A stretch of DNA of 38,009 nt from a virus: the IMG/VR virus record IMGVR_UViG_3300033475_000089; one strand, written 5' to 3'. The notes beneath the pieces were generated by a model, which was given only the letters and a program-made list of their open reading frames with translations, did no database searches and was not told the DNA's origin. Below, piece by piece: positions 8,575 through 32,264 of the stretch; positions within the stretch are counted from its first letter, which is position 1, and each line of letters opens with the position of its first letter. Position numbers and translations under genes: made by a program.

Positions 8575-9942
8575 ATGAGTATACCTGTTGAGGCGATTAT
8601 CCACTTGGATAAGTTTAAGCCTCGTGACTATCAATTACCTATATTCGATGCGATAGAGAATAAGGGTTTCAAACGTGTAATAGCAATCCTTCCACGACGT
8701 GCTGGTAAAGATCTGGCCTGTTGGAATCTTCTTATTCGTGCTGCTATACGTAAAGTTGGTGTGTATTGGATGTGTTATCCCACCTACGCTCAAGGCAAGA
8801 AGATTCTCTGGGATTCAGTGACGAATGATGGTATGAGATTCCTGGATTATATTCCACCTCAACTCATTAAATCAGTAAACTCGCAAGAAATGAAAATTAG
8901 GCTAGTAGGGGGTAGCCTTTTACAAGTAGTAGGATCAGACAATGTTGATAATCTTGTTGGTACTAACGCTCGTGGGATTGTGTTCTCTGAATACGCGCTC
9001 CAGGATCCCCGAGCCTATCAATTACTTCGACCGGTACTCACAGCTAACGCTGGTTTCGCGGTCTTCATATCCACGCCCCGTGGTAAGAATAACTTATGGG
9101 AATTATACAACCTTGCACAGGCCAATCCCAACGAGTGGTTCGCCTACATGCTCACGGTGCACGAGACACAGCACATAGATCTTGAGCTTATTGAACAGGA
9201 ACGTCGATCTGGAGAGATGTCAGACGATATGATCGAACAAGAATATTTCTGCAGTTTTTCAGCTGGAGTAGAGGGAAGCTATTACGCTAAATACTTAGAT
9301 AAGATGCGCTTGAAAGGCCAGGTTGGTATCGTTCCATGGGAACCAACGATGAAAGTGCATACCGCATGGGATATCGGTTTAGATGGCACAGCAGTGATAT
9401 TCTTCCAGGTTGCAGGCCAGGTAGTTCGCGTTATAGATTACTACGAAAAGCCCAACATGCCTTTCGAATACTTTATAGAACTCGTACTCCAAAAGAAATA
9501 TCGTTATGGCAACCATTTTGGTCCACATGACTTGGAACATCGCGTCTATACTAACAGTGCAGCAGCTACAAGAAGAGAGCTTGCGCTCGATCTTGGTATT
9601 GAATTTCAGGTAATAGATCGTGATCTTATAGCTGATGGTATAGAACTCGTGCGTAAAACATTACCACGCATTTGGATTGATGAAGTAAATGCTCAGGGGT
9701 TAATACGCTGCCTAGAAAACTACCGCCAGGAATATGATGGTAAGCGCAAGATCTATAAGGGTAAGCCATTGCACGATAACTATAGTCATGGAGCAGATGC
9801 TTTACGCTATCTTTGCCAATCTTTATCACGCACCTCAGATTCTATATCTTCTAAAGAGCGTGAGTATCTTTATCGTGAGGCAATGTATGGTACAAGTAAT
9901 AGCAATATACCTGCAGCTCTGCGTGATGACGTATACTATTAG
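8575..9942 (+). CDS. terL: Terminase large subunit
   Basis: 455 aa. Walker A-like LPRRAGKD, Walker B-like GIVFSEY, nuclease-domain WDIGLDGTAVIFF and C-terminal HGADALRY. Preceded by GAGTAGTAATG. Confidence 0.85.
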   Translation: MSIPVEAIIHLDKFKPRDYQLPIFDAIENKGFKRVIAILPRRAGKDLACWNLLIRAAIRKVGVYWMCYPTYAQGKKILWDSVTNDGMRFLDYIPPQLIKSVNSQEMKIRLVGGSLLQVVGSDNVDNLVGTNARGIVFSEYALQDPRAYQLLRPVLTANAGFAVFISTPRGKNNLWELYNLAQANPNEWFAYMLTVHETQHIDLELIEQERRSGEMSDDMIEQEYFCSFSAGVEGSYYAKYLDKMRLKGQVGIVPWEPTMKVHTAWDIGLDGTAVIFFQVAGQVVRVIDYYEKPNMPFEYFIELVLQKKYRYGNHFGPHDLEHRVYTNSAAATRRELALDLGIEFQVIDRDLIADGIELVRKTLPRIWIDEVNAQGLIRCLENYRQEYDGKRKIYKGKPLHDNYSHGADALRYLCQSLSRTSDSISSKEREYLYREAMYGTSNSNIPAALRDDVYY

Positions 9943-11307: not shown

Positions 11308-13437
11308 ATGATAGGGCCAGAATTATCACCGATGTATATAGATGAAGTACATCGCGATGTCTTACAGATGATGGAGGCTTCATATGTGCAAGCCATTACG
11401 ATCAATCAATCTTTCTGGGCTGAAGCAGATGTGGATACCCGTTTTGAAACCGGCGATCAGACTATTTTTAATGAACTTTATGGTAATATACCTGCTAATA
11501 GACGTCGTCAGTTCGCCTTTAATCGCATCCGTCGTGTTATCAACATGGTGCATGGCTATCAGGTACGCAATAGAAAATCCATAACCATTATCCCTGTAGA
11601 GAATGGTGAACAAGATACCGCAGACCAATACACAAAAATATTCTCGCAATTAGAACGCCAAGAAGGCATTCTTGAAACCATATCCGATGCCTTTAGGGGG
11701 GCATTGGTTACCGGTATGTCACTCTTGCAAGTATGGATGGATTACCGTGAAGATCCTATTTCCGGTAATATAAAACTAGATCATAAGCATTATAACTCAT
11801 TCCTCATAGACCCATTCTTTCGCAAAAAAGATCTCTCTGATTGCAACTTCATCTGGATACGTAACTTTCTCACCAAGCGTGAAGTAGTTTCATTACTTCC
11901 ATGGGCAACCGAAGAAGTATTAGGATTTTCTAACCTTGAAGGAACTCCCGGCAACAAAGATGCCAAGTTCCAGTTTATGCCTGAAACGTATAATTTCTCA
12001 ATGAAGAATCTTCTTACGTATGATGAGTATTATTATCGTGCATACCGTACACAAAAATCATTAGTGGATATTCGTACGGGTGAATCAATGGAATGGCGTC
12101 ATGGCGATGAAGCTTTGCGCGAATATGAACGACAGAACCCAGAGATTATGAATAACCTGATTGAAGTAGATCAGGAAATACAGACCGTGCGTTTGGCTAT
12201 CGTCGTACAAGGCAAGGTCATGTATGATGGTCCACAACCTGGTGGAACCGATCGCTATCCATTCGTTCCGGTTGTTGGCTATTACAATCCCCAAATGCCA
12301 TATTTCCCTTGGCGTATTCAAGGCATCGTGCGTGGATTACGAGATGCACAGTTTCTTTATAACCGCCGTAAGGCAATAGAATTAGATATTCTTGAATCAC
12401 AAATTAACTCTGGTTGGTTATACAAAGAAGATGCACTTATAGATCCTAAGGATGTATTCCTTTCAGGCCAAGGTCGTGGCTTAGCGCTCAAGAAATCAGC
12501 ACAAATAACAGACGTACAAAAGATACCAGCTGCCGACATACCACAAGGACAACTTGAAGTCTCTCGCATACTTGCTGAGGAAATAAATCAAATTTCAGGC
12601 GCTAACGAAGAATTATTGGGTTCGGCTACGGATGATAAGGCAGGTATATTATCGATGCTTAGGCAAGGTGCTGGTCTTACTACGTTGCAGATATTCTTTG
12701 ATAACTTAGATTATGCGCAAAAGATGCTTGGTAATATTATGCTCGATATGATTCAGACAAACTATACCCCTGGAAAAGTACAGAGGATTATTAATGAACA
12801 GCCCACTGCACAGTTTTATAATAAAGCGTTTGGAAAATATGCGGCCGCAGTTACAGACGGTGAGAACACGGATACACAACGTCAACTCCGTTTTGCACAG
12901 CTTCTTCAACTCCGTGAAGTTGGAGTGCCAATTCCAGATGATCAACTCGTGGAATCCGCAACTATCCAAAATAAAAAGAAACTTGTCGAAGCAATCCAAG
13001 CCCAACAACAACAGCAACAGCAAATACAACAAGCGCAAATGGAAGCTGCTCAACAAGAGCAAATGGCTCGTGTGCAACTGGCTCAGGCGAGTGCGCAAGC
13101 AGAACAAGGGCTCGGGCTTGAACGTATAAGTAGAATACAAGAGAACCAACAACTAGCAGTAAAACAACGTGCAGAAGCTAAGCGCGAAGAAGAACAGGCT
13201 ATCTTAAATGCAGTACGTGCACTCAAAGAACTTGAGTCTGTAGACTTAGCAAATATAGAAAAATTAATTCAACTTTCGCATGTAGTGCAAGCTAAAGAAG
13301 CGGCACAACAGACAGTTGATGAAGTGGCAGACGCTGGCAGACAGTCTCTTATGCAACGAGTCCAACAACAGTTGCAAGCGGGACCTAAGCCTATAAAACA
13401 GAATAATATACCGACGCAGCCAGTTGCTGCTAGGTAG
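11308..13437 (+). CDS. Portal protein
   Basis: 709 aa, located 1.4 kb downstream of terL. Long Gln/Ala-rich C-terminal coiled coil (QAQQQQQQQIQQAQMEAAQQEQ) like barrel-bearing portals. Preceded by GGAGAGCAGTAGTAATG. Confidence 0.7.
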   Translation: MIGPELSPMYIDEVHRDVLQMMEASYVQAITINQSFWAEADVDTRFETGDQTIFNELYGNIPANRRRQFAFNRIRRVINMVHGYQVRNRKSITIIPVENGEQDTADQYTKIFSQLERQEGILETISDAFRGALVTGMSLLQVWMDYREDPISGNIKLDHKHYNSFLIDPFFRKKDLSDCNFIWIRNFLTKREVVSLLPWATEEVLGFSNLEGTPGNKDAKFQFMPETYNFSMKNLLTYDEYYYRAYRTQKSLVDIRTGESMEWRHGDEALREYERQNPEIMNNLIEVDQEIQTVRLAIVVQGKVMYDGPQPGGTDRYPFVPVVGYYNPQMPYFPWRIQGIVRGLRDAQFLYNRRKAIELDILESQINSGWLYKEDALIDPKDVFLSGQGRGLALKKSAQITDVQKIPAADIPQGQLEVSRILAEEINQISGANEELLGSATDDKAGILSMLRQGAGLTTLQIFFDNLDYAQKMLGNIMLDMIQTNYTPGKVQRIINEQPTAQFYNKAFGKYAAAVTDGENTDTQRQLRFAQLLQLREVGVPIPDDQLVESATIQNKKKLVEAIQAQQQQQQQIQQAQMEAAQQEQMARVQLAQASAQAEQGLGLERISRIQENQQLAVKQRAEAKREEEQAILNAVRALKELESVDLANIEKLIQLSHVVQAKEAAQQTVDEVADAGRQSLMQRVQQQLQAGPKPIKQNNIPTQPVAAR

Positions 13438-18920: not shown

Positions 18921-19628
18921 CTAGATTTGCTTTTTAGTTCTATCTGCTTCTATTTCAGCCTTGGTTCTGCGTGGGTTCTTACGAACATAAGGCCTACGAT
19001 TGTTACAGTTTTCTTGATGCGTAACCCATCTACAGTTTGAAGGCTCATAGTTTCCATTGTTATCTATGCGATCCAGGGTTAATCCTTCTGGCCTATCTCC
19101 CATATCTGCATAAAAATTAACAAATTTACGCCAACGTTCACATACAGTTATACCTCTTGCGCCATAATCCTTATAACCGGTTGCATGTGGCGCGGTGCAA
19201 CGATTTATCATAGCTTGCCATGTTTTGTAAATAGATGTATTAATCATGCCATGCTTGGTATTTTTTGCTGCAATTTCTCTATTGTGGCATGTTCTACATT
19301 GTGTTGTTTTTCCTGATCTCAATTCTGATGCACATTGTAAAGCTCGATGTCCACAATCGCATTCTGCTTCATAACGCATAAGCTTTCTATGCATATCAAC
19401 ATATCTTATTATGGTCCATTTACCGTATTTTTTCCCTATTTCGTCTGCTGGGTTATGTAACATTCTGAGTTTGCAATCTACGCATTGAGTTCCACGACCT
19501 GCACGTAAATCAGTTCCTGCTTTTATACGAATATTTCCACATTCGCACATACATTCATAATGCTTTCCTGGTTTTTCACTGGGCCATTCAGCTAAAACTG
19601 TCCATTTGTGAAATGTCTTGCCAATCAT
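18921..19628 (-). CDS. Free-standing HNH-family homing endonuclease
   Basis: 235 aa. Two Cys-rich repeats (KWTV...C.C.CG......G..LR.G....C..C). C-terminal block IYKTWQAMINRC...YKDYGARGITVCERW...F..DMGDRP.GLTLDRIDNNGNYEPSNCRWVTHQENCNN. Confidence 0.75.
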   Translation of the reverse strand: MIGKTFHKWTVLAEWPSEKPGKHYECMCECGNIRIKAGTDLRAGRGTQCVDCKLRMLHNPADEIGKKYGKWTIIRYVDMHRKLMRYEAECDCGHRALQCASELRSGKTTQCRTCHNREIAAKNTKHGMINTSIYKTWQAMINRCTAPHATGYKDYGARGITVCERWRKFVNFYADMGDRPEGLTLDRIDNNGNYEPSNCRWVTHQENCNNRRPYVRKNPRRTKAEIEADRTKKQI

Positions 19629-19862: not shown

Positions 19863-20129
19863 ATGATGAGTATAACGACTACATCAAGTCTTCCTGCGCC
19901 GGTCCAGCAATCTTTTGCATACAAGTTGCTCGCCGTACCAATCCCCAATTTCATTCATAACTTAGCAGCAATGTATCAAGTTATGCCTAGACAAGGTGGT
20001 ACGACAATCCGCTTCCGCAGGTATAATCCATTAAATACGGCTATGGTGCCATTGGGTAACAGCGGTGTTACACCTCCACCACAAAATTTAACAGCTGTAG
20101 ATATCGATGCGAAGATAAGTTTTTACGGT
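19863..20129 (+). CDS. Major capsid protein (N4 gp56-type, HK97 fold), exon 1
   Basis: 89 codons ending ...AKISFYG. The blocks GGTTIRFRRYNPL and PLGNSGVTPPPQNL are typical of this MCP family. AAGGAG RBS. The exon ends in the U of the P1 U.G pair (tacggt with gccgta at 20136-41). Confidence 0.85.
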
Positions 20130-20374
20130 AAACGTGCCGTAACAGTTTATTGTTAAAGACGTATGTGACAATAAACGAGCAGGTTAATGATGGCCTGCTT
20201 TAAACCCACTCTGATTGACTTGGAACTCCTTATGGGACAACAAGGCGGAAGCGAAAGCACCGTGAACGACTAAGCGAGAGGGCGCGAAAGCGAAGCGATA
20301 GTCTGAACTCTATAGCAATATAGAGAGGGAACTCCGAAGAGGGATCCCCGCTCGAAAGAGTCATAAAGTAACAG
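20130..20374 (+). mobile_element. Group I intron 1 (ORF-less, 245 nt)
   Basis: P1 is tacggt|a with tgccgta. P2 is gtttattgt with acaataaac. P2.1 is agcagg with cctgct. It has the shared block gattgacttggaa (20213-25). P7 is GACTAA (20268-73) with GATAGTC (20297-303). P8 and P9 have GAAA and GCAA tetraloops. The intron ends ...gtaacaG. Confidence 0.7.
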
Positions 20375-20401
20375 ATTTGCACTTTACAAAATCAAGACCC
20401 T
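20375..20401 (+). CDS. Major capsid protein, exon 2 (27-nt micro-exon, ICTLQNQDP)
   Basis: In frame with exons 1 and 3. It ends in the U of the P1 U.G pair of intron 2 (agaccct with ggggtct at 20411-17). The junction gives ...QNQDP|VLNE..., restoring the DPVL.E block expected in this MCP family. Confidence 0.6.
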
Positions 20402-21206
20402 AAAAAATATGGGGTCTATAAACCGTCTCTGATTGACTTGGAAGCCTACGGCATTTGCTAGGGTGACAAGGGCCAAGGACGCGATTTGAATTTATTGTTT
20501 TAAAGGATGTAAGTGGAAGCGAGAATTAAGTTTACGAATCTCTTCAAAGCAAGTCTGACGAACTTCAAGGTTTTCTTTAGAAACTTTGTTGCTTCCAAGC
20601 CTTTCGGTGTAAGTTTTTCTAAACCTAATCATAATCTCACACTGTTTCTTCTTGATAGTAAGATAGGGCAGAATTTGTTCACAAAGATCGAGCAATCTAT
20701 CACCTGTGGCAATCCAACTGAATACTTCACGTGTGAATCTCTGAGTAGAGGTGGTACGTGTGGCAGCAGAGTTGGTTCCGCTAAAGGTTTGATTAAGCCA
20801 ATCTATAAGAACATAATCAGTATTATCAATCTTAAGAAGACCGCGATAATGTTCGCTTACATAGCCATCGCCCTTCTTTTTGGGAATGATGCCCATATAG
20901 AAACATCCTTCACCATCAACGATACCAGCCATATAGGCAAGATCGGTATCTTTGTAGATAGTTGGAACGTAATTTTCAGATCGTTTATAGTATTTGCGTC
21001 GTCGTGTTTCTTCCATAGGATACCTTATTTTATGGACCAGTTATATTATACAATTGTACACGATCATTTACTATTTGTCCAGGCTGAACGACTAAGTGAG
21101 ATGGGCTCGCAAGGGTATGCGATAGTCTGACCTGCATTCGAAAGATGCAGAGGTGAATCCGAAGAGGTTTGCCCGCCTAGAAATAGGTCACAAAAGTAAC
21201 AGAATG
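20402..21206 (+). mobile_element. Group I intron 2 (805 nt) carrying an antisense LAGLIDADG gene in the P6 region
   Basis: P1 is agaccct|a with tggggtct. P3 is gtctc with gagat. It has the shared block gattgacttggaa (20431-43). P7 is GACTAA (21090-95) with GATAGTC (21121-27). P8 has a GCAA loop and P9 a GAAA loop. The intron ends ...gtaacagaatG. Confidence 0.7.
20492..21016 (-). CDS. LAGLIDADG homing endonuclease (single-motif type), antisense to the host intron
   Basis: 174 aa. Motif LAYMAGIVDGEGCFYM and an ILPYLTIKKKQCE block. AAGG RBS, with a TATAAT on the minus strand at 21050-21045. Confidence 0.85.
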   Translation of the reverse strand: MEETRRRKYYKRSENYVPTIYKDTDLAYMAGIVDGEGCFYMGIIPKKKGDGYVSEHYRGLLKIDNTDYVLIDWLNQTFSGTNSAATRTTSTQRFTREVFSWIATGDRLLDLCEQILPYLTIKKKQCEIMIRFRKTYTERLGSNKVSKENLEVRQTCFEEIRKLNSRFHLHPLKQ

Positions 21207-21438
21207 GTATTAAACGAAGGTTCTCGCCGTCTTGGCGTATCTTTACGCCAAACTGAAGACCAGCTTACGCGCGATATGTTGCAATCAACCGCATCATTCA
21301 TCAATTGCGTTGGTGGCGTTAACGGTGATAGCCCAACTGAAATCACACGTAGTGATGTTGATACTGTTATTCAAGCCCTTATGGGAAATAACGCCTATAC
21401 CATCACTGACTTGATTCAAGGTGAAGACCGTTTTGGGT
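21207..21438 (+). CDS. Major capsid protein, exon 3
   Basis: VLNEGSRRLGVSLRQTEDQLTRDML...DLIQGEDRFG plus 1 nt. P1 of intron 3 is ttgggt (21433-38) with gcccaa (21446-51). The alternative exon end at 21439 is also frame-compatible. Confidence 0.75.
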
Positions 21439-21640
21439 TAATTTGGCCCAATTAAAATTTCTGGTAATTGACTTGGAAGCCTAAGGGAAACTATGGCGAC
21501 AAGGCGCAAGCAGCGTAAGCATGCAGCGTGAGAGACTAAACCCAGAAACACCGTAAGGTGATGTGATAGTCCGACCAGAGTTACGAAAGGCTCTGAGATG
21601 CACAGAAATGATGCATCCCCCATAAGGGAGTAACAAAGCG
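21439..21640 (+). mobile_element. Group I intron 3 (ORF-less, ~202 nt)
   Basis: P3 is tctgg with ccaga. It has the shared block attgacttggaa (21467-78). P7 is AGACTAAA (21532-40) with GATAGTCCGACC (21565-76), close to the Tetrahymena core AGACUAAA...GAUAUAGUCGGACC. P8 is cacc-GTAA-ggtg. The alternative boundaries 21440..21638 are also frame-compatible. Confidence 0.7.
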
Positions 21641-22044
21641 CAAGCCCCGTTCGTAATGCTTACCTAGCATTATGCCATACGGATCTGGTATCTAACTTGA
21701 ACAACGTTGCTGGATTTGCAAACGTAGCACAATACCCGAACAATAATAACGTTCCTGATTGTGAATATGGTGCAATTTCTAATCTACGTTTCCAAGTATC
21801 TTCTATTGGTGCGATTGCTGCTAATGCTTCAAGCCTTGGTAAGAATGTGTACTCCATATTCTGCACAGGCCGCGAAGCATATGCAAACGTAAAACAAGAA
21901 GGTTATGCAGACAGTTTCATTTATCGTTCACCGATCTACTCTGATCCATTGGCTCAGAATGCATCTATAGGTTGGAAGACTGCTATGGTCCCTCGCCTGT
22001 TGAACGATCTATGGTTAATCAATTTACGTTGCACCCTAGCATAA
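21641..22044 (+). CDS. Major capsid protein, exon 4
   Basis: (S)SPVRNAYLALCHTDLVSNL...SDPLAQNASIGWKTAMVPRLLNDLWLINLRCTLA. The DPLAQ...GWK...LN..W tail is characteristic of N4-type MCPs. The frame is open upstream of the track start (TTG at 21697) back to 21634. Confidence 0.8.
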
Positions 22045-22057
22045 GGAAAGGATTAAC

Positions 22058-23281
22058 ATGGATGGAACCGTTTTAGGTCAAGGTACCTTTTTAGCTAATT
22101 CAACTGGATTAGCTAACCCAAACCCAGGTAATGCTGAGATTGGACAAGCCAATACTGCCTATATTCAAATACCTTCAAACGCAGACTTTATGTGGGTGAG
22201 AAACTTCACTAAGTCTGGTGCTGCCGGTACTAATGCAGCCTATTTTAATGGGACTGCTAATGGTGCTGTAGGTGTTGAATTCTACTGGCAACGTGGTATG
22301 GCAGCTGGATCTGCATTTGTTAAATTTTATAGCAATGCTGGTCAAGCAATATCTGGTGATACGATAACTTCTGGCGGATTTACTTTGTATGATCCATCAG
22401 GTCAATCACAAGGTGCACAGCCATTACTTGGACCTGCTGTTGCAACGACTGCTTCTACAAACGCAACGCGTCCGGTAGTAAGTACAGCTGATACATCGGG
22501 TATTTCTGTAGGTACTGTTGTTCGTATGAGCAATAGTGCACAAACTGATGTTAATGGTGTTGATATGGTTGTAGGTGCTGTAACAGTAAATACAAGCTTC
22601 ACGCTTTTAGCAGCATCAAATGCTTTAGCTACCGCTCCAGGTGCTATTGGTGGAGCTGGCTTCTATCGCATTGTATACAATGCTAATAGTGAGCTATTCT
22701 ACCCACGTCGTCGTATTGTTACTAATATTACACGTGCGGTGAATGCACAAGTTAGTACTTCAGTTGCGCATGGATTAACTCCAGGCCAATCAGTACGCTT
22801 TAATATCCCTGCTGCATCAGGTATGATTCAACTTAATCCTCAATTAAATAATAACTATTTCCCTACAAGCGCAAGCCAATCTGCAGTAGTTGTTCAAGTA
22901 ATTGATGATTATAACTTTACGATCAACATTGATACAACTGCATATGATGCGTTCACATGGCCTACTATTGCACAGATGCCTTCTAACTTCCCTGAGGTTG
23001 TTCCTTTTGGTGAAGATACAGCTGCTGCTTTAGTAAGTCCATATAGCCAAACACCAACCATTGGCGGAAGCCAAATCTTCAATACTAATACAGGTATCCT
23101 TGCTGACTCAACAGTCAACACAGGCTATTTGGGTATGGTATTAGGAACTGGTGGTGCTGGCGCTATTCTTACAACTCCTATACTTGGTCCTTCTGGAACT
23201 ATTTCTTGGTCAGCAGGAAACGTTGCCACAAGTGACAGAATGTATTGGGTTGCAGGTAAATCGCAATTCGGTGGATTATAA
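22058..23281 (+). CDS. Virion structural protein of unknown role (Ala/Gly/Thr-rich, directly after the MCP)
   Basis: 407-aa ORF with an AAGGA RBS, 13 nt after the MCP stop. No family recognised. Confidence 0.7.
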   Translation: MDGTVLGQGTFLANSTGLANPNPGNAEIGQANTAYIQIPSNADFMWVRNFTKSGAAGTNAAYFNGTANGAVGVEFYWQRGMAAGSAFVKFYSNAGQAISGDTITSGGFTLYDPSGQSQGAQPLLGPAVATTASTNATRPVVSTADTSGISVGTVVRMSNSAQTDVNGVDMVVGAVTVNTSFTLLAASNALATAPGAIGGAGFYRIVYNANSELFYPRRRIVTNITRAVNAQVSTSVAHGLTPGQSVRFNIPAASGMIQLNPQLNNNYFPTSASQSAVVVQVIDDYNFTINIDTTAYDAFTWPTIAQMPSNFPEVVPFGEDTAAALVSPYSQTPTIGGSQIFNTNTGILADSTVNTGYLGMVLGTGGAGAILTTPILGPSGTISWSAGNVATSDRMYWVAGKSQFGGL

Positions 23282-23320
23282 TAATGGGGGCCTTGTGCCC
23301 CCTTTCTTGAAAGGAAGAGT

Positions 23321-23815
23321 ATGGAAGAAGCAAGATCGGCCGTTATTGGGCATATACAAACTGCTCATACCCAAGGGCCAAATAAAGATGCAAAAAAACT
23401 TAATTTAAAATATATGCGCGATCGCGATCGTGAAACCGTTACCGGTGTATTTCGTTACTATGAAGTACCAAACGGTGTCATGGAATTCGTATATCGCGAA
23501 TATAAAGAAGACCCGGTAGAAAGATACCGCATGTTTGATGGTGAAATATATACCGTTCCCCGTGGGGTTATGCGCCATTTGAATAAGAATGGCTGGTATC
23601 CAGAATATGAGCACTATCAAACAGAACGTGGTTTACAAATGATCGGTAATCATGGTCCTATGATTGCAGGTATTAATCCCGATATGCCACATGTTGGTAT
23701 GCGTATTGGTAAGAAGATTAAACGTTTTGCTTTTGAGAGCATGGAATTTCTTGAGATGGATGATATTCCGGGAGCACAACGTATTATCAATGTCGAATTA
23801 GCACCAGTTAAATAA
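23321..23815 (+). CDS. Hypothetical structural-module protein
   Basis: 164-aa ORF with a GGAAGAG RBS. Confidence 0.7.
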   Translation: MEEARSAVIGHIQTAHTQGPNKDAKKLNLKYMRDRDRETVTGVFRYYEVPNGVMEFVYREYKEDPVERYRMFDGEIYTVPRGVMRHLNKNGWYPEYEHYQTERGLQMIGNHGPMIAGINPDMPHVGMRIGKKIKRFAFESMEFLEMDDIPGAQRIINVELAPVK

Positions 23816-23818
23816 GGA

Positions 23819-24199
23819 ATGACGATGCCCTATTTTTGCTATGCTTCACCAAATCCAATATTCCAGCGATCTATGCGTATAATAGAAGCTATTACCAATG
23901 GATTTCCTGCGCAGGTTACCACTACCTTTCCGCATCAGTATTTAAATGGACTCATTGTACGTCTGTATATACCGGAAGGATTTGGTATGCAGCAAGCAAA
24001 TCAATTATCGGGCGCTATAACCGTCACTTCAGCAACGACGTTTCTGGTGGATATTGATACGACAAATTTCGATTCTTTCATCATTCCTACGATTGTTGAG
24101 GGCGTGAGTTATACATGCCCTCAAGTCGTACCAACAGGTGAGGTCTCGAGTACGTTACAGAATGCCACGCAAAACGTACTTCCATTCTCTGCAACGTAA
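23819..24199 (+). CDS. Hypothetical structural-module protein
   Basis: 126-aa ORF with an AAGGA RBS. Confidence 0.7.
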   Translation: MTMPYFCYASPNPIFQRSMRIIEAITNGFPAQVTTTFPHQYLNGLIVRLYIPEGFGMQQANQLSGAITVTSATTFLVDIDTTNFDSFIIPTIVEGVSYTCPQVVPTGEVSSTLQNATQNVLPFSAT

Positions 24200-24289
24200 A
24201 GATTGTATATAGTGCAACTCTTGCTAGCCTTATAAAAAAGAACGTCCGTCGTCGCCCGTTGGGCTATGCCGAGACGCAGGGGAGTAGTA

Positions 24290-25303
24290 ATGGCAGATTC
24301 TACATTAAATGCGATACGTACTAAAGTACGACGTTTAACACGGACACCTTCAGAGGCACAGTTAAGCACTGCTGAATTAGATCAGTATATTAACACCTTT
24401 GTGCTATATGATCTTCCTGAGCATTTACGGCTGTTTAACTTAAAGCAAACCTTTACCTTTTATACTAATCCCTACCAGGATGTATATGAGAATATAAGTG
24501 ATCCTGCATTCAGTCAGAATCCATTGTTTGATTTTAAGAATAGGTTTATATCTATTAATCCACCAGCATATATAGCCGGTTGGCAAGTATTGTGGACACA
24601 ATCTCGTGAGCAGTTATTTAATATATATCCACAAACGAATGCCATTGCATCCATAGGTGTTATAGGAGATGGTGTCACTAATTCTTTTTCAGGTACATTG
24701 GCTAATGTTCCTGTACAGGCTAATAACGTTCTATTTGATTCGGTTGGTGTTAATAACGAAGGTCTTTCGGTTTTTGATGCTCCTTTGTTTCCTTCTGATG
24801 GTACTGGAACTTTATTTGATAGTAATACCAATATAGCTGTTGGTGCTATTAACTACGTAACCGGAGCTTATACATTCTCATTCTCAGCAGCTCCTGGTGT
24901 TGGAAGAGCAATAAATAGCCAGACTATACCTTACGTACCATCGTTGCCGCAAACAATCTGTTATTTTAATGATAGTTTTATACTTCGTCCTATTCCTGAT
25001 CAACCATATAGAGTTGATGTAGAAGTATATGTACAACCTACTGAGATGCTCGACACCACTCAACATCCAGAACTTAATCAATGGTGGCAACTCTATGCCC
25101 TTGGGGCAGCTCGGAAAATATTCCAAGACAAATTAGATATGGATAGCTTATCGCTGATACAGCAAGAGTTTGAAGATCAGATGGCTATGGCATTGAGAAG
25201 AACAATCGTACAGAATACCAATGAACGTGTAGCAACTATATATACAGAAAATACCCAAGGCCCTAATAATAATGGCTTCTGGTGGGGAACTGGTAACTTT
25301 TAA
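24290..25303 (+). CDS. Virion protein, possible head-tail adaptor (start trimmed)
   Basis: The ATG at 24290 is preceded by GGGGAGTAGTAATG. 337 aa. The function is inferred from position only. Confidence 0.65.
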   Translation: MADSTLNAIRTKVRRLTRTPSEAQLSTAELDQYINTFVLYDLPEHLRLFNLKQTFTFYTNPYQDVYENISDPAFSQNPLFDFKNRFISINPPAYIAGWQVLWTQSREQLFNIYPQTNAIASIGVIGDGVTNSFSGTLANVPVQANNVLFDSVGVNNEGLSVFDAPLFPSDGTGTLFDSNTNIAVGAINYVTGAYTFSFSAAPGVGRAINSQTIPYVPSLPQTICYFNDSFILRPIPDQPYRVDVEVYVQPTEMLDTTQHPELNQWWQLYALGAARKIFQDKLDMDSLSLIQQEFEDQMAMALRRTIVQNTNERVATIYTENTQGPNNNGFWWGTGNF

Positions 25304-25312
25304 GGAAATTTT

Positions 25313-25930
25313 ATGGCCTATAATAATAACGTACCGTTGCCAACTGATACGATTTCATCAACACAAGATCCTATATTACAGAATTTCAGGGCTATAAAAC
25401 AACTTATTGATGTAAATCATGGTACTTTTGGTGGCACTGGAATTGATCAAGAAGGTAAGCATAAATTTGTAGAGATGCCAGATCAAACTGCAGATCCTGC
25501 AGCTGCTACGGGCGAAATGACGTTATATGCTAAAACTTATACTAAAACATCACAATCAGAAGCTTATGTTTTAAGAGATGATTTAGCTGGGCCCAATGTC
25601 CCTATTCCTTTTACTGCATGTCTAGCAAATCAAAATGGATGGGCATGGCTTCCGTGTGGCTTGTTAATGAAATGGGGTAATTTTTCTTTAACAAGCGGAA
25701 CAAATGCTGGCACTGCATTTAACTATCCTACAGGTGTTACTATACCAGCATTTACATCACAACCATTTATACTACAAACGAGTTTACTAAGTGGAAGCGC
25801 TCCTTCTGGGAATTCAACTCAATATCATGCAATAGTATATACTCCCCTATCTACAGGATTTACTGTTGCATGGAATGTTGCGAGTGCGATTAATTTAAGC
25901 TATTTAGCTATCGGACCTGCAACTCCATAA
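25313..25930 (+). CDS. Tail or fibre-associated structural protein
   Basis: 205 aa with a fibre-like N-terminus (MAYNNNVPLP...). Confidence 0.65.
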   Translation: MAYNNNVPLPTDTISSTQDPILQNFRAIKQLIDVNHGTFGGTGIDQEGKHKFVEMPDQTADPAAATGEMTLYAKTYTKTSQSEAYVLRDDLAGPNVPIPFTACLANQNGWAWLPCGLLMKWGNFSLTSGTNAGTAFNYPTGVTIPAFTSQPFILQTSLLSGSAPSGNSTQYHAIVYTPLSTGFTVAWNVASAINLSYLAIGPATP

Positions 25931-25939
25931 GGAACACCT

Positions 25940-28165
25940 ATGCCACAAGATCGTTTCCTTATAGCTCCCCTTACTGATGGCCTACAAAACAACGTAAAAC
26001 CCTGGTTGATTTCAGACCAGGCTTTCGCAGTATTACAAAACCTCTATCTATTTCGTGGACGTGTGCGTAAACGTTTTGGTGTAGAGTATATGGGCACTGG
26101 CCAAGATCAAAAAGAATCACGATTAAGAGTTAATTTGGGTGCTACCAACGGAGCTGGTACTCTGGCTGGCACTGTGCCTGGAAATGTGTTTGCTGTTGGA
26201 CAAATGTTCTCTGTTGGATCTGTACTATTTACTGTGGTTACTGCTGGGGCCGTTCAGCAAATGTTGCGTACCGATTTAAGTGTAGCTGTAGCAACATATA
26301 GTACTACAAATGGCGCATTTAATATTACTGGTGCGGCTGCTTTAACCACTGTTTACTTCTATCCGGGCCTTCCCGTTATGGGACTAACTCAATTTGAGAC
26401 AGAGTTAGTTAATGAAGAATTTACCATAGGGTTTGATACTAGGTTTGCTTATCGCTATCTATCTACCGGATGGACAAGATTGGCTGGCGAAGCAACTCCA
26501 GGAGCTGCTTTATGGTCTGGCAATGATACTAATTTCTTCTGGTCAACAAATTACCGAGGACCTACCGATGGTGTTAGTGTTTTTTTTACAACGAATAACT
26601 ATTTTAATACTGGCACTAATGCTTATGATGGGGTGCGATATTTTGATGAAGCTGCAGCTTTATGGCATTTCTTATTACCTCAATATTCTACGAGCGCTAA
26701 TGATATAATTGTTGCTGCACTCATTGTAGTACCTTTTCAAAATCGCTTATTACTCCTTAACATAGTAGAGCAAACAGGTGCAGGTCCCTTTACTTATCAA
26801 CGCTATGTTAATCGCGTAGCTTATTCTTCGACTGGAGATCCTACAAGCGCTGTGCAATGGGATCGAGTTACCCCAGGGCGTGGTGGGAAAATAGATTGTC
26901 CAACGCCCGAAGCTATCGTCACCGTAGAATTTATCAAGAATCGACTCATTGTTGGATTTGAAAAAAGTACATGGGAATTAGTCTACACGGGCAACCAAGT
27001 TACTCCCTTTGTATGGCAAGAATTAAATACCGAATATGGATCTGAATCTACATTTAGTGCAATACCGTTTGATAAATATATGCTATCTATAGGGCAAGTT
27101 GGGGTTATGAGCTGCAACGGATCAAACGTACAACGTATAGATGATTTAATCCCAGATGAGGTATTTAATATTTTGGATGGGTCGGATGGCGTTATACGCG
27201 TATATGGTATCCGTGATTATTTTACTGAGCTGGTATATTGGACCTTTCCTACATCTGCACAAGCAGCAACTAGTATTCCTCGTAAGTATCCTACCCGTGT
27301 TCTCGTATATAACTACAAGGCTAATACCTGGTCATTTTTTGATGATTCTATTACCTGTTTTGGTTACTTCCAAATTATTAATACTATGAGTTGGGAAGAG
27401 AATAATAATCAATGGGAAGAAGAGAATGAACTATGGGTAGATCCTACATTCCAGTCTGGATTCCGTGCTGTTATAGGTGGTAATCAAGAAGGATATACAT
27501 TCGTCTGTAATACAGGTGAAAATAGTAGTAGAAATGCAGGGGTGCTCCAGATAACTAATGTAAATACAGCAACTCGACAACTTACTATAATTGATCATAA
27601 TCTTATAGCGGGTGACTATATTCTTCCTGAAGGTGCGGTAGGATTGACTGGTCTAAACGATATTATAACGCAAGTGCTTTCTATAGTTGATGCAAACAAT
27701 ATCATTATTGAGCAACCATTTTCTGGAACCTACGCTGGTGGTGGAACTGTAGCTCGCGTTAGCCCTTTAGTGCTCACCAGCAAACAATATAATTTCTATG
27801 TGGAGAAGCTTAGAAATGCTTATATATCTAAGATAGATTTTCTTGTTACACGTACCCCTACCGGTGCAATTACCGTTGATTCTTATATATCTTCTTCTAA
27901 TTTTTCTCTTTTAGCGGGAGGACAAGCTACAGGGGCTTTAGTGGGAACGAATGTACTTGAGACAAGTCCATATGCTTTATATCCATTTGAATCGCAACAA
28001 GACCGATTGTGGCACAGCCTGTACCTGCAGGCAGAGGGAGAAACGGTCCAATTTTCTATGTATTTTTCGGATGCTCAAATGAGAGATAAAAATGTTTCTC
28101 TTGTTGGATTCGAATTACATGCTTTCGCAGTCACAGCTATGAGCACATCAGATCGACTTCAATAG
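25940..28165 (+). CDS. Large tail structural protein (possible nozzle / tail tubular B-like)
   Basis: 741 aa, the largest ORF in the tail module. The function is inferred from size and position only. Confidence 0.65.
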   Translation: MPQDRFLIAPLTDGLQNNVKPWLISDQAFAVLQNLYLFRGRVRKRFGVEYMGTGQDQKESRLRVNLGATNGAGTLAGTVPGNVFAVGQMFSVGSVLFTVVTAGAVQQMLRTDLSVAVATYSTTNGAFNITGAAALTTVYFYPGLPVMGLTQFETELVNEEFTIGFDTRFAYRYLSTGWTRLAGEATPGAALWSGNDTNFFWSTNYRGPTDGVSVFFTTNNYFNTGTNAYDGVRYFDEAAALWHFLLPQYSTSANDIIVAALIVVPFQNRLLLLNIVEQTGAGPFTYQRYVNRVAYSSTGDPTSAVQWDRVTPGRGGKIDCPTPEAIVTVEFIKNRLIVGFEKSTWELVYTGNQVTPFVWQELNTEYGSESTFSAIPFDKYMLSIGQVGVMSCNGSNVQRIDDLIPDEVFNILDGSDGVIRVYGIRDYFTELVYWTFPTSAQAATSIPRKYPTRVLVYNYKANTWSFFDDSITCFGYFQIINTMSWEENNNQWEEENELWVDPTFQSGFRAVIGGNQEGYTFVCNTGENSSRNAGVLQITNVNTATRQLTIIDHNLIAGDYILPEGAVGLTGLNDIITQVLSIVDANNIIIEQPFSGTYAGGGTVARVSPLVLTSKQYNFYVEKLRNAYISKIDFLVTRTPTGAITVDSYISSSNFSLLAGGQATGALVGTNVLETSPYALYPFESQQDRLWHSLYLQAEGETVQFSMYFSDAQMRDKNVSLVGFELHAFAVTAMSTSDRLQ

Positions 28166-28173
28166 GAGAAATT

Positions 28174-28698
28174 ATGCCAGATCCATTGAGTGTTTTATTA
28201 CCTACCAGTAACGTATGGGATCCTAGTCAGATATATGAGACTGAGGGTATAAATGAACCCATGCAAGAATTACTGGTGCGTATGTACCAAAATCTAAATC
28301 AGATGTCGATTGCTATAAATCTTAAAGATAGCGCTTATTATACCACCCAAGAGTTTGTTAATAACCAACAATTTTTTCAACCCACGGGTGTTGATCAAAC
28401 TGATTATAGACCAAGCTTTCGAATGACTGTTAATTTCGGAGCGCTTCCTGCCGCTGGTGCCAAAACAGTTGCGCATAATATTGGACCAAGTTCTGCATAC
28501 ATAGCGACGAGGATTTACGGTGCTGCAACAAAACCCTCTACTATTAACTGGATACCCATCCCTTATGTTTCTGCTACCTTGATGGCTGATAACCTACAAT
28601 TGGATGTTGATGCTACTAATGTAACCATAACTACTGGCGGCACTGATTATTCTTTGTATACGCAATGTATTGTAGTTATAGAGTATATAAAAAAATAA
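28174..28698 (+). CDS. Tail structural protein, unknown role
   Basis: 174-aa ORF with a GGAGAA RBS. Confidence 0.7.
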   Translation: MPDPLSVLLPTSNVWDPSQIYETEGINEPMQELLVRMYQNLNQMSIAINLKDSAYYTTQEFVNNQQFFQPTGVDQTDYRPSFRMTVNFGALPAAGAKTVAHNIGPSSAYIATRIYGAATKPSTINWIPIPYVSATLMADNLQLDVDATNVTITTGGTDYSLYTQCIVVIEYIKK

Positions 28699-28755
28699 GT
28701 AGCTTATAATGCTGACTTAATTAGGCTATTAATAGTTATCGAGAAAGGATAGTAC

Positions 28756-29466
28756 ATGGGTTTTTTTTCTGGCACAAAAGCACGCAATGAACAATTAAGT
28801 ACCGTTACACCACAACAAGCAGGTACCAATGTTGCAGCCAATACTGGCGTACAACAATTAATACCTTACCTCTTACAAAATCTTATGGGTGGCCCTCAAG
28901 GCCAAGGTAGATTTGATTTTGGTCCTATTGCTCAGCGCGCACGCACGCAGTTTGAACAACAAACTATACCGAGTATCGCAGAACGATTTAATACATTGGG
29001 CAGAGGCGCTTTATCAAGTTCTGGATTCGCACAAACTCTTGGTGGTGCTGGTGCTGGATTACAAGAAGGCCTAGCCGCTCAAGAATCACAATTTGGCCTA
29101 CAACAACAAGGGCTATTACAACAATTGCTTGGGCAACTTGGCGGTATTGGCTCACAACAACAATTTGAAAACATCTATCATCCAGAACAACCTGGATTCC
29201 TACAAACTGCACTCCCCGGTCTTATAGCTGCTGGTGCGACTGCCTTTGGTGGACCATTAGCGGGAGCAGCTGGTGGAGCTTTAGCTAACGCTCTATTCGG
29301 TTCAGTAGGTCAACAAGCTCCACAAAAAGTTAGCAGTATGCAACCACGTTCAAATATGTCTAATTTAGGTGGCTCATTAGGTAATCTCATAGGTGGTACC
29401 CAGCATTTACCTATAGGTGGTGCTAATGCATTTAATATCGGTGCTAGTAAATTTGGAGGATTCTAA
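28756..29466 (+). CDS. Gly/Gln-rich low-complexity virion protein (possible internal or ejection protein)
   Basis: 236 aa with GGAGAGLQEGLAAQESQFGLQQQGLLQQLLGQLGGIGSQQQ. Confidence 0.65.
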   Translation: MGFFSGTKARNEQLSTVTPQQAGTNVAANTGVQQLIPYLLQNLMGGPQGQGRFDFGPIAQRARTQFEQQTIPSIAERFNTLGRGALSSSGFAQTLGGAGAGLQEGLAAQESQFGLQQQGLLQQLLGQLGGIGSQQQFENIYHPEQPGFLQTALPGLIAAGATAFGGPLAGAAGGALANALFGSVGQQAPQKVSSMQPRSNMSNLGGSLGNLIGGTQHLPIGGANAFNIGASKFGGF

Positions 29467-29468
29467 TC

Positions 29469-31349
29469 ATGGCTCAAATTATCAATACTCCTGGTCGTAG
29501 CGCATATGGCGGACAAGCTGCAGGTTCTGCTTTAGGCAAAGCTTTAGAGGGTTTAGCTGGCACGTTTGTTGGTGAGTTCACTCGCGGTAAGCAACGTACA
29601 TTGTTTGAAAAGCAATATCCTGAGCATGCAGATATCCTATCGCAATTCCATGCGAATCCTGCTGTACAACAAAAACTTATAGCCAATATAGAAAATCAAC
29701 GCGCCAGCCAATTACAAAATTTGTTAAAACAGCAACAACAAACACAGCAAACGGAAGAACTTGCCAATTATTATGAATCACAGGGATTACCACGTGATCT
29801 GGCTTATCAACCAAAAGAAGTACGTAATCTTGAATACAAGAGATTAACAAAGCCACAAACATGGGCGCAATCTGCATTAGATTTGTTTAAAGGTGAACCT
29901 GCTGTTAAAAAACCTGGAGCAATTACACAGGCTCCTTTAGGTGAAATACCTAAACAGGGACAAGTAAGCGCCGAACAAGCTGAATTATTACGTTCCCAAG
30001 GATATGATGTTCCATTAGCCAATGAATCTACTTCAATGGCCCAACGAGTATCTTCTTTTGGAACTGGATTTGGTGCAGGAAAATTAGGGCTTACAGGAGA
30101 TTTACTTTCTGGCTTGGGTGGTTTAGCTAATAGATTATTACCTGAAGGATTACAGTTACCAGAATATAAATCTGCTTTATCTGTTGAAGGACCTCAACAA
30201 CAAGAATTACAATCACTGGCTGATAGATTTGGGGTTGAAGTTGATGACCCTAGATTCCTGCAAATGTTATCTGAAGGTGAACTTATAACTCCAACTGTTG
30301 CATCTCCATTTCCAACTTCTACTGAGCTAAAAAAGGGTATAGGTAAATTAGCTAAAGGTACCGAAGCAGAAAAATATCTTACACCACAAACAGCTACACA
30401 AAAATGGTATGAAGATATGGGGCAGATTGCTGCTCTTCTTTCGAGTCCTTCTAAATCATTTGCACAAGGTGGTATTAAAGCAGTTGCTAAAGATTTAGCT
30501 AAAGCTGCCGGCGTAGCTGCAGGTGGTGATACTGCTGGATGGTTAACTGCACGTGCTACTGGTAGTGAGCTTGCGGGAGATTTGATCAAAAATGGCATAT
30601 GGCTTGCTTATAATTTATTCCCAGGAAGCTTAAATAATGTTGCCCAAAAAGAAGCATCTGTGTTTGAAAATGAAGTGATTAAGAAGGCTGAAGCGGCTAA
30701 TAAAACTATTGATATGACTAAATACAAACCAGAAGTTATTAAGATTCAACATGATCTTAATAAAATGGTTCGCGGGACTGATGCGTATAAATTCTTAGAA
30801 AATGAAATACAACCATTGCAAGAGATTGTATTGAAACACAATCAAGATCCCCGAGCTTTATGGGATTATATTGGGGAATTACGAGCAAAGCTTCCTGAAG
30901 CTCCTGACAAAGCAAAAAAATTGTATGAAAAAATGATTGAAGTCAGTGAAAACATTCTTGAAAACTTTGGCAATACTATCAGTAAAGAAGGTACCCAAAG
31001 TTTTAAAAATGCTGAAAGGCTTCTTGCACAAAGTTCTGCCGCTGCAAATGCCTTTAAAAATAATAAAAAGATTATTACTGACAATGTAGGCGTTGGAGTT
31101 GCTATGATGCTTATGGGTGGCATGAGAAAACTTTTCGCCGTAGGTGCCGGTGCCGCTGCTCTAAATTATGCAGCTAAAATGGTTACTGACCCGACTATGC
31201 AAAAGTATATGACCCAGCTAGCAAAAGCTGGAGCTGCTAACAATACTATACTTGCAGATAGGCTTATGAAGAAAGTTAACAAACGAGCGGAGCAGATAGA
31301 TCCTAAAACAGCACGTGAAGTTATGGCGCAATTACAACAAAGCAGATAG
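29469..31349 (+). CDS. Large internal virion or ejection protein (tape-measure-like composition)
   Basis: 626 aa. Gly/Ala-rich hydrophobic segments and coiled-coil stretches. The function is inferred only. Confidence 0.6.
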   Translation: MAQIINTPGRSAYGGQAAGSALGKALEGLAGTFVGEFTRGKQRTLFEKQYPEHADILSQFHANPAVQQKLIANIENQRASQLQNLLKQQQQTQQTEELANYYESQGLPRDLAYQPKEVRNLEYKRLTKPQTWAQSALDLFKGEPAVKKPGAITQAPLGEIPKQGQVSAEQAELLRSQGYDVPLANESTSMAQRVSSFGTGFGAGKLGLTGDLLSGLGGLANRLLPEGLQLPEYKSALSVEGPQQQELQSLADRFGVEVDDPRFLQMLSEGELITPTVASPFPTSTELKKGIGKLAKGTEAEKYLTPQTATQKWYEDMGQIAALLSSPSKSFAQGGIKAVAKDLAKAAGVAAGGDTAGWLTARATGSELAGDLIKNGIWLAYNLFPGSLNNVAQKEASVFENEVIKKAEAANKTIDMTKYKPEVIKIQHDLNKMVRGTDAYKFLENEIQPLQEIVLKHNQDPRALWDYIGELRAKLPEAPDKAKKLYEKMIEVSENILENFGNTISKEGTQSFKNAERLLAQSSAAANAFKNNKKIITDNVGVGVAMMLMGGMRKLFAVGAGAAALNYAAKMVTDPTMQKYMTQLAKAGAANNTILADRLMKKVNKRAEQIDPKTAREVMAQLQQSR

Positions 31350-31427
31350 CTAATCTTTCATGATAAAAAACATATAATAAAAAGCTATACCAGCAATAAG
31401 ATCTAAAATACAAGATAGGTCATCCAT
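31350..31427 (-). CDS. Candidate 25-aa hydrophobic peptide, antisense to the structural operon
   Basis: MDDLSCILDLIAGIAFYYMFFIMKD. AGGGGGA RBS 5 nt upstream. Minus-strand TTGCAA (31494-89), 17-nt spacer, TAGAAT (31471-66). Confidence 0.3.
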   Translation of the reverse strand: MDDLSCILDLIAGIAFYYMFFIMKD

Positions 31428-31450
31428 TTTTCCCCCTACAGGATTAAAAT

Positions 31451-31477
31451 ATATAATTCTATATAATTCTATATAAT
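31451..31477. repeat. Tandem 10-bp repeat (atataattct x 2.7)
   Basis: atataattct atataattct atataat, inside the 221-bp AT-rich intergenic region. Confidence 0.85.
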
Positions 31478-31570
31478 ATTTAATCTATTTGCAACCCCCT
31501 CACATATAATTTGCTTATAGTAGCGGATGTATGAAGCTTAGTTACGAGTACTTCTTAAATAAGGAAAGTA

Positions 31571-31903
31571 ATGAAAAACTATATATTACCTATACCGCTT
31601 ACCAGCGTTACGTCTGCATCCATCAATGGAACGACGTACACGGCTATAAACGATGCTGGGCTACCTCATCCCTGTTCTATCATACGCATTATCAACGCTA
31701 GTACTACGGCTGTACAGATAAGCTGGGATGGCACCCATGACCATGACTACGTCAAAGCTGGCGATACCATAACATTAAATTTCCAAACAAATAGACAGCC
31801 CAATGGCCAGGTAGCTTTAGCCAAACATGGTACCGTGTTCTACGTTAAGGGTACGGCAGGAACTGGTTTTCTTGCATTAGCCGGTTATTACCAGGAGAAT
31901 TGA
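31571..31903 (+). CDS. Small structural protein at the start of the fibre module
   Basis: 110-aa ORF with an AAGGAAAG RBS. Confidence 0.65.
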   Translation: MKNYILPIPLTSVTSASINGTTYTAINDAGLPHPCSIIRIINASTTAVQISWDGTHDHDYVKAGDTITLNFQTNRQPNGQVALAKHGTVFYVKGTAGTGFLALAGYYQEN

Positions 31904-32256
31904 TGTCAAACTATGCATTAGCGGTTAAATTTGCCGCAGAACCCCTTCGTTCATTAGCCTTCGGTAGTATATCAGGGACTTATGCAGGTATCGGTACTCC
32001 ATTTAGTCATCCGATACGCCTTATATATATACAAAATCTCAGCGATAAAACATTAGTCTATTCCTTTAATGGGGTTGATGACCATTTTAAACTTCCCGAA
32101 CAGGGATTTTTATTGTTAGATGTAACCTCAAATAAAACCCAACAAGGTGGTTGGTATGTTGCTGAAGGTACACGTATCTACGTTAAGCAAGATGGTGCCG
32201 CGGCCACAGCCGGAGAAGCAAATGTTTCAGCATTTTATGGTGATACAGGATATTAG
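31900..32256 (+). CDS. Small structural protein
   Basis: 118-aa ORF with an ATGA overlap onto the upstream stop. Confidence 0.65.
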   Translation: MMSNYALAVKFAAEPLRSLAFGSISGTYAGIGTPFSHPIRLIYIQNLSDKTLVYSFNGVDDHFKLPEQGFLLLDVTSNKTQQGGWYVAEGTRIYVKQDGAAATAGEANVSAFYGDTGY

Positions 32257-32264
32257 GAGAAACG

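Follow-up and report, generated by a model that had tools for sequence, protein, structure and literature searches.

Catalytic parts have been lost, other elements are relied upon, or introns are packed against or inside one another in the degenerate group II introns, the group III introns and the twintrons. Among group I introns, Staphylococcus phage Twort carries several small ones close together in a single gene, orf142, and a group I intron has been described in the major capsid gene of cultured phages, e.g., the Cluster J mycobacteriophages (PMC3706429). Furthermore, the group I core of Azoarcus works in vitro with a guide sequence that is supplied in trans (PMC2709566). Here, we describe the capsid gene at positions 19863-22044 of a viral DNA stretch of 38,009 nucleotides (IMG/VR record IMGVR_UViG_3300033475_000089), referred to below as the window. 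An earlier note on this stretch had proposed that the gene is split by three group I introns. According to our analysis, it contains in addition a 29-nucleotide (nt) insert at 20130-20158 that has no catalytic core of its own and that is probably spliced in cis by the core of the downstream intron, as a helper-dependent group I mini-intron.

A Core-Less Insert with Group I Splice-Site Signals

The insert (AAACGTGCCGTAACAGTTTATTGTTAAAG) sits between the codons for FYG and TYV, contains a stop in frame 0 and has a length that is not a multiple of three. Its P1 helix consists of the exon strand UUACGGU (20123-20129) and the guide GCCGUAA (20136-20142), with G20136 opposite U20129. The pairing tacggU/Gccgta, which the earlier note had assigned to the first full-size intron, is thus real, but it is part of a separate insert. 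The three bases preceding this guide, CGU (20133-20135), pair with 20159-20161 as P10, the terminal G is G20158, and a further strand at 20145-20155, the tether, pairs with bases 20166-20176 of exon 2. The P10 that directly adjoins P1 is the group I geometry by which two exons are aligned on one guide. Guides, tether and spacers fill all 29 nt, and no match was found there with R1, a custom covariance model built from an alignment of 77 cores of the intron family. Since a catalytic core is missing, the insert is not a self-splicing group I intron; its elements suggest that it works like the substrate half of one.

Mapping of the exons revealed short inserts at exactly the FYG site in the relatives L159, L088, L116, L147 and L090, while L188 carries a full-size intron of 706 nt at this site, which has the same guide as the mini-introns and a similar 3' end. 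A pattern scan identified the insert in 77 viral contigs, which together with the window and two further loci results in 80 loci with 62 distinct inserts of 28 to 59 nt, all located at one site and with lengths in all three modulo-3 classes. A further 31 metagenome contigs bring the overall number to about 110 contigs and at least 90 distinct versions, and none of these inserts contains a catalytic core. A stop codon is present in the incoming frame of 62 of 63 inserts. The pattern used initially fixed the wobble G and the terminal G, and the scans were repeated with both positions left free. All 77 inserts of the viral contigs had a G at both positions, and the three extra matches were chance hits outside of capsid genes; in the metagenomes, a G was found at both positions in 60 of 60 inserts in a capsid context, and the 46 chance matches had an approximately uniform base composition.

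P10, in which the three bases directly upstream of the wobble G pair with the following Thr codon, is of the Watson-Crick type in 61 of the 62 distinct inserts and subsequently in 31 of 31 new ones. The covariation makes use of all four Thr codons (ACA/UGU, ACC/GGU, ACG/CGU and ACU/AGU). In a formal count over 22 compact inserts (class A), 91% were paired compared to 32-48% with slid partners (covariation, 0/500).

Two side observations concern individual inserts. The longest mini-introns (53-59 nt; L116, L222, L227, L236, L255 and L257) possess an additional hairpin, which is located within the loop of P1 after the 5' splice site and before the guide. When the mini-intron-bearing L240 and L247 are compared with the uninterrupted L055, exon 1 is 99.3% identical until about 12 nt before the insertion site, where the identity stops; this break looks like the boundary of a co-conversion tract.

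A Tether to the Downstream Intron

The partner of the 3' half of the insert depends on the distance to the next intron. With a spacing of 26 nt, this half is complementary to variable codons of the micro-exon, and the mean run is 8.4 base pairs (bp) with the own exon compared to 5.8 bp with swapped exons. At spacings of 51 or 87 nt, that local pairing is absent, and the 3' half has its partner at a greater distance downstream. From the end of the tether helix to the 5' splice site of the full-size intron that follows, the distance is 8-9 nt in 44 of 60 loci at a spacing of 26 nt, in 17 of 19 at 51 nt and in 6 of 6 at 87 nt, and these 8-9 nt are the downstream intron's own P1 strand. In the 51-nt group, a formal count showed 93% pairing compared to 30-49% with slid partners, and six pairs were changed on both sides compared to an expected 2.5 (0/500); these compensatory changes affect synonymous codon positions that lie 30-40 nt from the insert. 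For the class-B mini-introns, pairing of the 3' half with their own 5' part or with the upstream exon was not above that of swapped controls. The occurrence of CUGAUUGACUU in some mini-introns was also considered as a relic of J3/4-P4, but its complementarity to the exon that adjoins the helper intron is the better explanation.

In the window, the minimum-energy fold of 20116-20204 consists of three abutting hairpins, namely the P1 of the mini-intron, the tether and the P1 of the downstream intron 1' (-30.8 kcal/mol, z = -4.8). The suggestion of the earlier note that closely spaced P1 helices constrain folding and the order of splicing was an apt intuition, and the real arrangement is more extreme than the proposed one.

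A downstream intron accompanies the insert throughout. Where the capsid gene is complete, which applies to 68 mini-intron-bearing loci, a large intervening sequence lies at a distance of 13-102 nt without exception, and in the 12 remaining loci, the exon chains are truncated at residues 88-118, at or beside known insertion sites. R1 matches 71 of 79 mini-intron-bearing loci. The exon following the mini-intron always breaks downstream at 26-27, 51-57 or 87 nt, which also applies to the new metagenome loci, and no mini-intron-bearing locus was found whose sole intron lies far off or only upstream.

The Capsid Gene and Its Product

As deduced from the sequence, the capsid gene is composed of five exons and four intervening sequences, all of which are located on the plus strand, and encodes a product of 316 amino acids. 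Exon 1 (19863..20129) comprises 89 codons ending with ...ISFYG; it is the beginning of an open reading frame (ORF) with the ribosome-binding site AAGGAG upstream and aligns to homolog residues 1-88. The core-less mini-intron (20130..20158; 29 nt, AAACGUGCCGUAACAGUUUAUUGUUAAAG) is missing from all uninterrupted homologs. It is followed by exon 2 (20159..20184), a micro-exon of 26 nt that, judged by translation and frame, encodes TYVTINEQ and ends with positions 1 and 2 of a Val codon. The full-size group I intron 1' (20185..20379; 195 nt, no ORF, last base G20379) separates it from exon 3 (20380..20401), a second micro-exon of 22 nt, which consists of the last base of the Val codon and the codons for TLQNQDP. 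The full-size group I introns 2 (20402..21206; 805 nt, last base G21206) and 3 (21439..21640; 202 nt, no ORF, last base G21640) flank exon 4 (21207..21438; 232 nt), and exon 5 (21641..22044) contains 404 nt including the stop codon.

The ORFs starting at 19863, 21153 and 21697 are indeed consecutive parts of one N4-gp56-type capsid protein, as had been proposed. Most capsid genes of this family are free of introns, and about 2000 uninterrupted homologs of 313-317 amino acids with an identity of around 70% were found in a large protein collection. TYVTINEQV, encoded at 20159-20185 (ACG TAT GTG ACA ATA AAC GAG CAG GTT), equals the residues of the homologs. The alignment of the 316-residue product with P0005 has no gaps over 315 residues, and residues 62-109, which cover three of the four junctions, are identical. 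The uninterrupted relative P0089, which is encoded on contig L081, is 96% identical over 217 amino acids. L081 lacks introns 2 and 3, and P0089 reads continuously and without gaps across the junctions 20401/21207 and 21438/21641, which confirms that both had been placed exactly. Furthermore, L081 starts with the 3' end of an intron, ...AAAGTAACAGAATAATG/C ACA TTG CAA..., and for this reason the first large intron is taken to end at 20379/20380 and not at 20374/20375. Cultured phages were of no help for fixing the junctions: megablast of the region against them gave zero matches, and tblastn found only relatives of less than 28% identity, which are too distant for this purpose.

The product of 309 amino acids from four exons, which the earlier note had derived, matches the capsid profile TIGR04387 end to end (E = 1.8e-39), but its first junction is not clean when compared with homologs. 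The score rises from 135.9 bits for this product to 157.4 bits for the 316-residue product, which covers profile positions 1-322 of 324 (cut-off, 60 bits). The shorter model missed the fourth intervening sequence and one of the two micro-exons: its first intron fuses the 29-nt insert (20130-20158), the 26-nt micro-exon (20159-20184) and the real 195-nt intron, and its single micro-exon of 27 nt has a true size of 22 nt and is joined by the additional one of 26 nt. For the revised gene, the predicted sequence of the spliced exon 1/exon 2 junction in the mRNA is ...UUUUACGGU/ACNUAUGU..., and the capsid peptide predicted from the spliced gene is ISFYGTYVTINEQVTLQNQDPVLNEGSR.

Three Full-Size Group I Introns

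By sequence and covariation, the other three intervening sequences are ordinary full-size group I introns, and they are predicted to be spliced. The shared blocks ATTGACTTGGAA, GACTAA and GATAGTC are present in exactly three copies each on the plus strand of the gene region, as had been reported. A pattern derived from these blocks identified more than 119 viral contigs. The alignment of 77 cores consists of 75 non-redundant cores from the contigs of relatives and two from the window. RNAalifold recovered P3, P4, P5, P6 and P8 from this alignment, and 18 of 23 predicted pairs are maintained via changes on both sides, which were seen in P3, P5, P6 and P8. When P7 was added as a pseudoknot, 98.6% of the cells were paired compared to about 40-50% with slid partners, and the covariation score was 0.52 compared to 0.17 in shuffles (0/500). 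The invariant P7 itself carries no information because it was required by the search pattern. The order of the helices is canonical (P3-J3/4-P4-P5-P4'-P6-J6/7-P7-P3'-P8-J8/7-P7') and includes the P3/P7 pseudoknot.

In the 38-kb window, R1 finds three cores only, all of which are located within the capsid gene: 20200-20335 in intron 1' (122 bits, E = 2.6e-26), 21453-21603 in intron 3 (117 bits, E = 4.8e-25) and intron 2 in two halves, 20418-20587 and 21018-21159, which flank an ORF in the P6 loop. Covariation over the 77 members, clean junctions and this model search all support the proposal that three group I introns split the capsid gene; the boundaries given for the first intron had to be revised. 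Removal of the introns restores the uninterrupted gene exactly. In intron 1', P1 is formed by GAGCAGGU and GCCUGCUU (8 bp within 20177-20200; exon strand 20177-20184, internal guide sequence 20193-20200), the J3/4-P4 block is located at 20214-20225, and P7 pairs 20268-20272 with 20299-20303. The P1 helices proposed for the other two introns (agacccU/Ggggtct and ttgggU/Gcccaa) are present as AGACCCU (20395-20401) with GGGGUCU (20411-20417) in intron 2 and UUGGGU (21433-21438) with GCCCAA (21446-21451) in intron 3. The 5' splice site of all three introns follows a U that forms a U.G wobble with the internal guide, and their last base is a G. The minimum-energy fold of intron 1' alone was not significantly better than that of shuffled sequences (z = -1.7); the support for the intron fold is therefore covariation and not folding energy.

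A search with Rfam 15, which included the RF00028 model suggested in the earlier note, gave no match in the window at the gathering score and none on 20050-21750 at E<=10. Applied to Twort orf142, this search detects each of the three introns with 64-101 bits, so a failure of the tool is not the cause. We read the result as divergence of the intron family, since homology is supported by covariation and by reciprocal weak matches to the Twort introns: the three best matches of R1 in the Twort region are the three Twort introns, with about 20 bits each. Accordingly, the introns of this large environmental-phage family are distantly related to the classical group I introns of phages. The Rfam group I model misses the whole family, and automated annotation will overlook these introns.

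Many relatives (L147, L208, L209, L219 and others) differ from the window in that the P1 loop of the helper intron is extended by a conserved segment of about 35 nt (...AGATCTTTGAAAT...GGTTTTGTAGG...) just after GAGCAGGT, which is absent from intron 1' of the window.

Proposed Mechanism and Alternative Explanations

The sequences establish the exon structure of the gene and show that the large introns have a group I fold; across about 110 contigs, they also show that P1, P10, the terminal G and the tether are conserved, with covariation, and that a downstream full-size intron is never missing. In the mechanism that we propose, the 29-nt insert would be removed from the RNA with the neighbour's core as the agent: the core of the downstream intron 20185-20379 would act in cis on the P1 and P10 of the mini-intron and carry out both transesterifications. 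A guanosine would attack after U20129, and exon 1 would then attack after G20158, thereby joining FYG to TYV; the downstream intron would also splice itself, either before or after the mini-intron. The insert would accordingly be a group I intron from which the entire catalytic core has disappeared, while the substrate-side elements are retained and a tether is present. A full intron at the FYG site that lost its middle part is the probable origin of the mini-introns; the intron that L188 carries at this position has their guide and resembles them at its 3' end. Taking all loci together, we lean slightly towards the view that they form a class of non-autonomous group I introns (28-59 nt), natural and widely distributed, whose members consist only of P1, P10, the terminal G and a tether and are spliced by the core of the neighbour to which they dock.

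Several points weigh against splicing by the neighbouring core. The removal of the mini-intron is predicted from DNA sequence, and no spliced copy of a mini-intron-bearing locus is present among the sequences at hand; the closest is L128, a relative of 96% identity that lacks the mini-intron at the DNA level. We know of no natural group I core that processes a second, foreign P1 hairpin, and even the full-size introns escape Rfam. Owing to the relatedness of the contigs, the locus counts exceed the number of independent events, and the searches covered a single site and required the exon word TTTTACGGT. The co-occurrence with a full intron could partly result from the origin of the mini-introns, which may arise only where introns are dense, and not from dependence. 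With regard to the tether, the statistic for the 87-nt group is not significant alone (n = 6; own 9.67 versus a swapped maximum of 9.67), and about a quarter of the 26-nt group is found at other offsets, with bulges as the probable cause.

The mini-intron could also be removed by group I chemistry in trans, carried out either by free excised intron RNAs of the same gene or by the ribozyme of a co-infecting phage. Any compatible core could dock to a mini-intron that brings its own guide, three cores are available in the window, and there is precedent for trans use of a guide in vitro. Against this, the tether always docks 8-9 nt from the splice site of the closest intron downstream, whichever of the three spacings applies, which points to a specific partner in cis, and there are no loci with their only intron far away or only upstream; we consider trans action unlikely. 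A different explanation dispenses with splicing altogether and assumes a translational bypass similar to that of T4 gene 60, with take-off at GGU (Gly89), landing at ACN and the P1-like hairpin as the take-off structure. The insert is short and variable in length, which bypass would tolerate, it contains an in-frame stop, and its hairpin includes the last sense codon. However, a landing codon is missing: the last triplet is never GGN (TTG, ATG, AAG, TAG and others are found, with the stop TAG in six distinct inserts), and the first triplet after GGU is never a stop. Bypass would also leave the invariant U.G wobble, the terminal G, the covariation of P10, the tether and the obligatory co-occurrence with an intron unexplained, and we regard it as very unlikely. 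Among the other routes by which translation might deal with the insert, read-through and frameshifting are ruled out by the in-frame stops and by the lengths in all three modulo-3 classes, and a capsid split into two polypeptides was rejected because no consistent start codon is present at the end of the insert.

Two further explanations were considered. The gene model of the earlier note places a single 245-nt intron at 20130-20374 and regards the TYVTINEQV stretch as a relic within it. The ends 20129 and 20375 join in frame, the P1 tacggU/Gccgta is genuine, and G20374 comes after GUAACA. The resulting product reads FYG-IC-TLQ, compared to FYG-TYVxxNEQV-TLQNQDP in the homologs, and would lack seven residues that are conserved in about 2000 proteins; the skipped stretch is the exact family sequence and is retained in every relative. 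Moreover, the 3' ends of the intron family, together with L081, put the splice site at 20379/20380, and the intron's own 8-bp P1 lies at 20177-20200, so this model is hardly credible. The insert might, on the other hand, be a defect, either an artefact of the assembly or the trace of an imprecise intron deletion that left a dead capsid gene. The window is probably a metagenome assembly, and the mini-introns resemble full introns with the middle deleted. An origin of this kind is difficult to reconcile with around 110 contigs from many samples, at least 90 distinct versions and exons that, apart from the insert, are undamaged and conserved; compensatory changes preserve the helices, and the insert contains no repeat that is able to cause a mis-join. 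We consider a defect to be highly improbable. Splicing of the mini-intron in cis by the core of the downstream intron is the simplest explanation and the one that we consider probable.

Endonuclease Genes and Intron Distribution

Intron 2 carries an ORF on the minus strand (20492..21016), which encodes a protein of 174 amino acids with a single LAGLIDADG motif (LAYMAGIVDGEG) and is antisense to the intron. It matches I-MsoI (E = 3e-9) and, over about 115-145 residues, I-CreI and I-CvuI, as well as phrog_5046 (E = 8.5e-24), while the match to the Pfam family LAGLIDADG_1 (PF00961) is weak and below the cut-off (15.6 versus 23.1 bits). From these matches, it is an I-MsoI/I-CreI-like LAGLIDADG homing endonuclease whose activity is predicted. 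The LAGLIDADG genes in the large introns of the family are nearly always antisense to intron and capsid gene (the window, L205, L212, L226, L252 and many more), and due to this orientation, they would need a promoter of their own. An exception is the intron of L188 at the FYG site, which carries a sense ORF. Directly upstream of the capsid gene, an ORF on the minus strand (18921-19628) encodes an HNH endonuclease of 235 amino acids (phrog_374, E = 1e-68), which may be a free-standing homing endonuclease.

The presence of three introns in one phage gene had been regarded as very rare, which does not hold for this phage group, as several introns per gene are found in relatives. Their capsid gene is an intron hotspot with at least ten insertion sites (L082-L200, e.g., L110, L089, L101, L090 and L252), which are located after residues ~27, 79-83, 88, 97, 105, 117, 122, 146-190, 225-238 and 261-276. 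Up to four large introns and a mini-intron are present in one capsid gene in L252. The window itself has the appearance of a tailed-phage genome that is almost complete at about 38 kb, with genes for the terminase large subunit, portal and structural and tail proteins (8575-9942, 11308-13437 and 22058-34238); it contains no tRNA and has no close cultured relative.

Comparison with Known Systems

Group I introns in capsid genes and phage genes with several introns, such as those of Twort, are already known; as far as we can tell, the 29-nt mini-intron with its tether is a new group I organisation. Our literature searches, whose coverage is incomplete and which do not prove novelty, found no natural core-less or helper-dependent group I intron. 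If the mini-intron is indeed spliced by the core of its neighbour, it would, to our knowledge, be the first natural group I intron to shed its ribozyme and live off that of another intron, and a single ribozyme would handle two splice-site pairs of an essential gene. The locus would then provide a compact system of about 300 nt for the question of how a group I core chooses among competing P1 helices and in what order, and a model for the decay of catalytic introns into signal-only introns. A practical consequence is that gene callers will split or truncate such capsid genes.

The introns of Twort orf142 share a related 3' region (AUAGUCUGAAC ... GUAACA ... G) with those of the window, but they are found by Rfam, whereas the introns of the window are not. 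We know of no core-less insert in Twort. As in the Cluster J mycobacteriophages, the production of the capsid would depend on splicing; the introns of these phages are single and full-size, whereas the window has three and a mini-intron. The 50-nt coding gap of T4 gene 60 is similar in that a short, untranslatable insert is located in an essential phage gene, with a homing endonuclease nearby and a hairpin at the 5' edge. In gene 60, however, bypass requires GGA both at take-off and at landing as well as a stop codon that directly follows take-off; the window has neither, and the conserved features of the mini-introns are splice-site signals of group I introns. In trans-guided ribozymes, i.e., the Azoarcus ribozyme without internal guide sequence (PMC2709566) and engineered trans-splicing ribozymes, a core acts on a P1 with a foreign guide strand, which resembles the arrangement proposed here. 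These are laboratory constructs, whereas the mini-intron arrangement, known from sequence, is natural, in cis, tethered and kept by selection in about 110 contigs. Degenerate group II introns, group III introns and twintrons differ from the mini-introns in their chemistry and their lineage; the mini-introns, if spliced as proposed, would be the group I counterpart of the step from self-splicing to externally catalysed introns.

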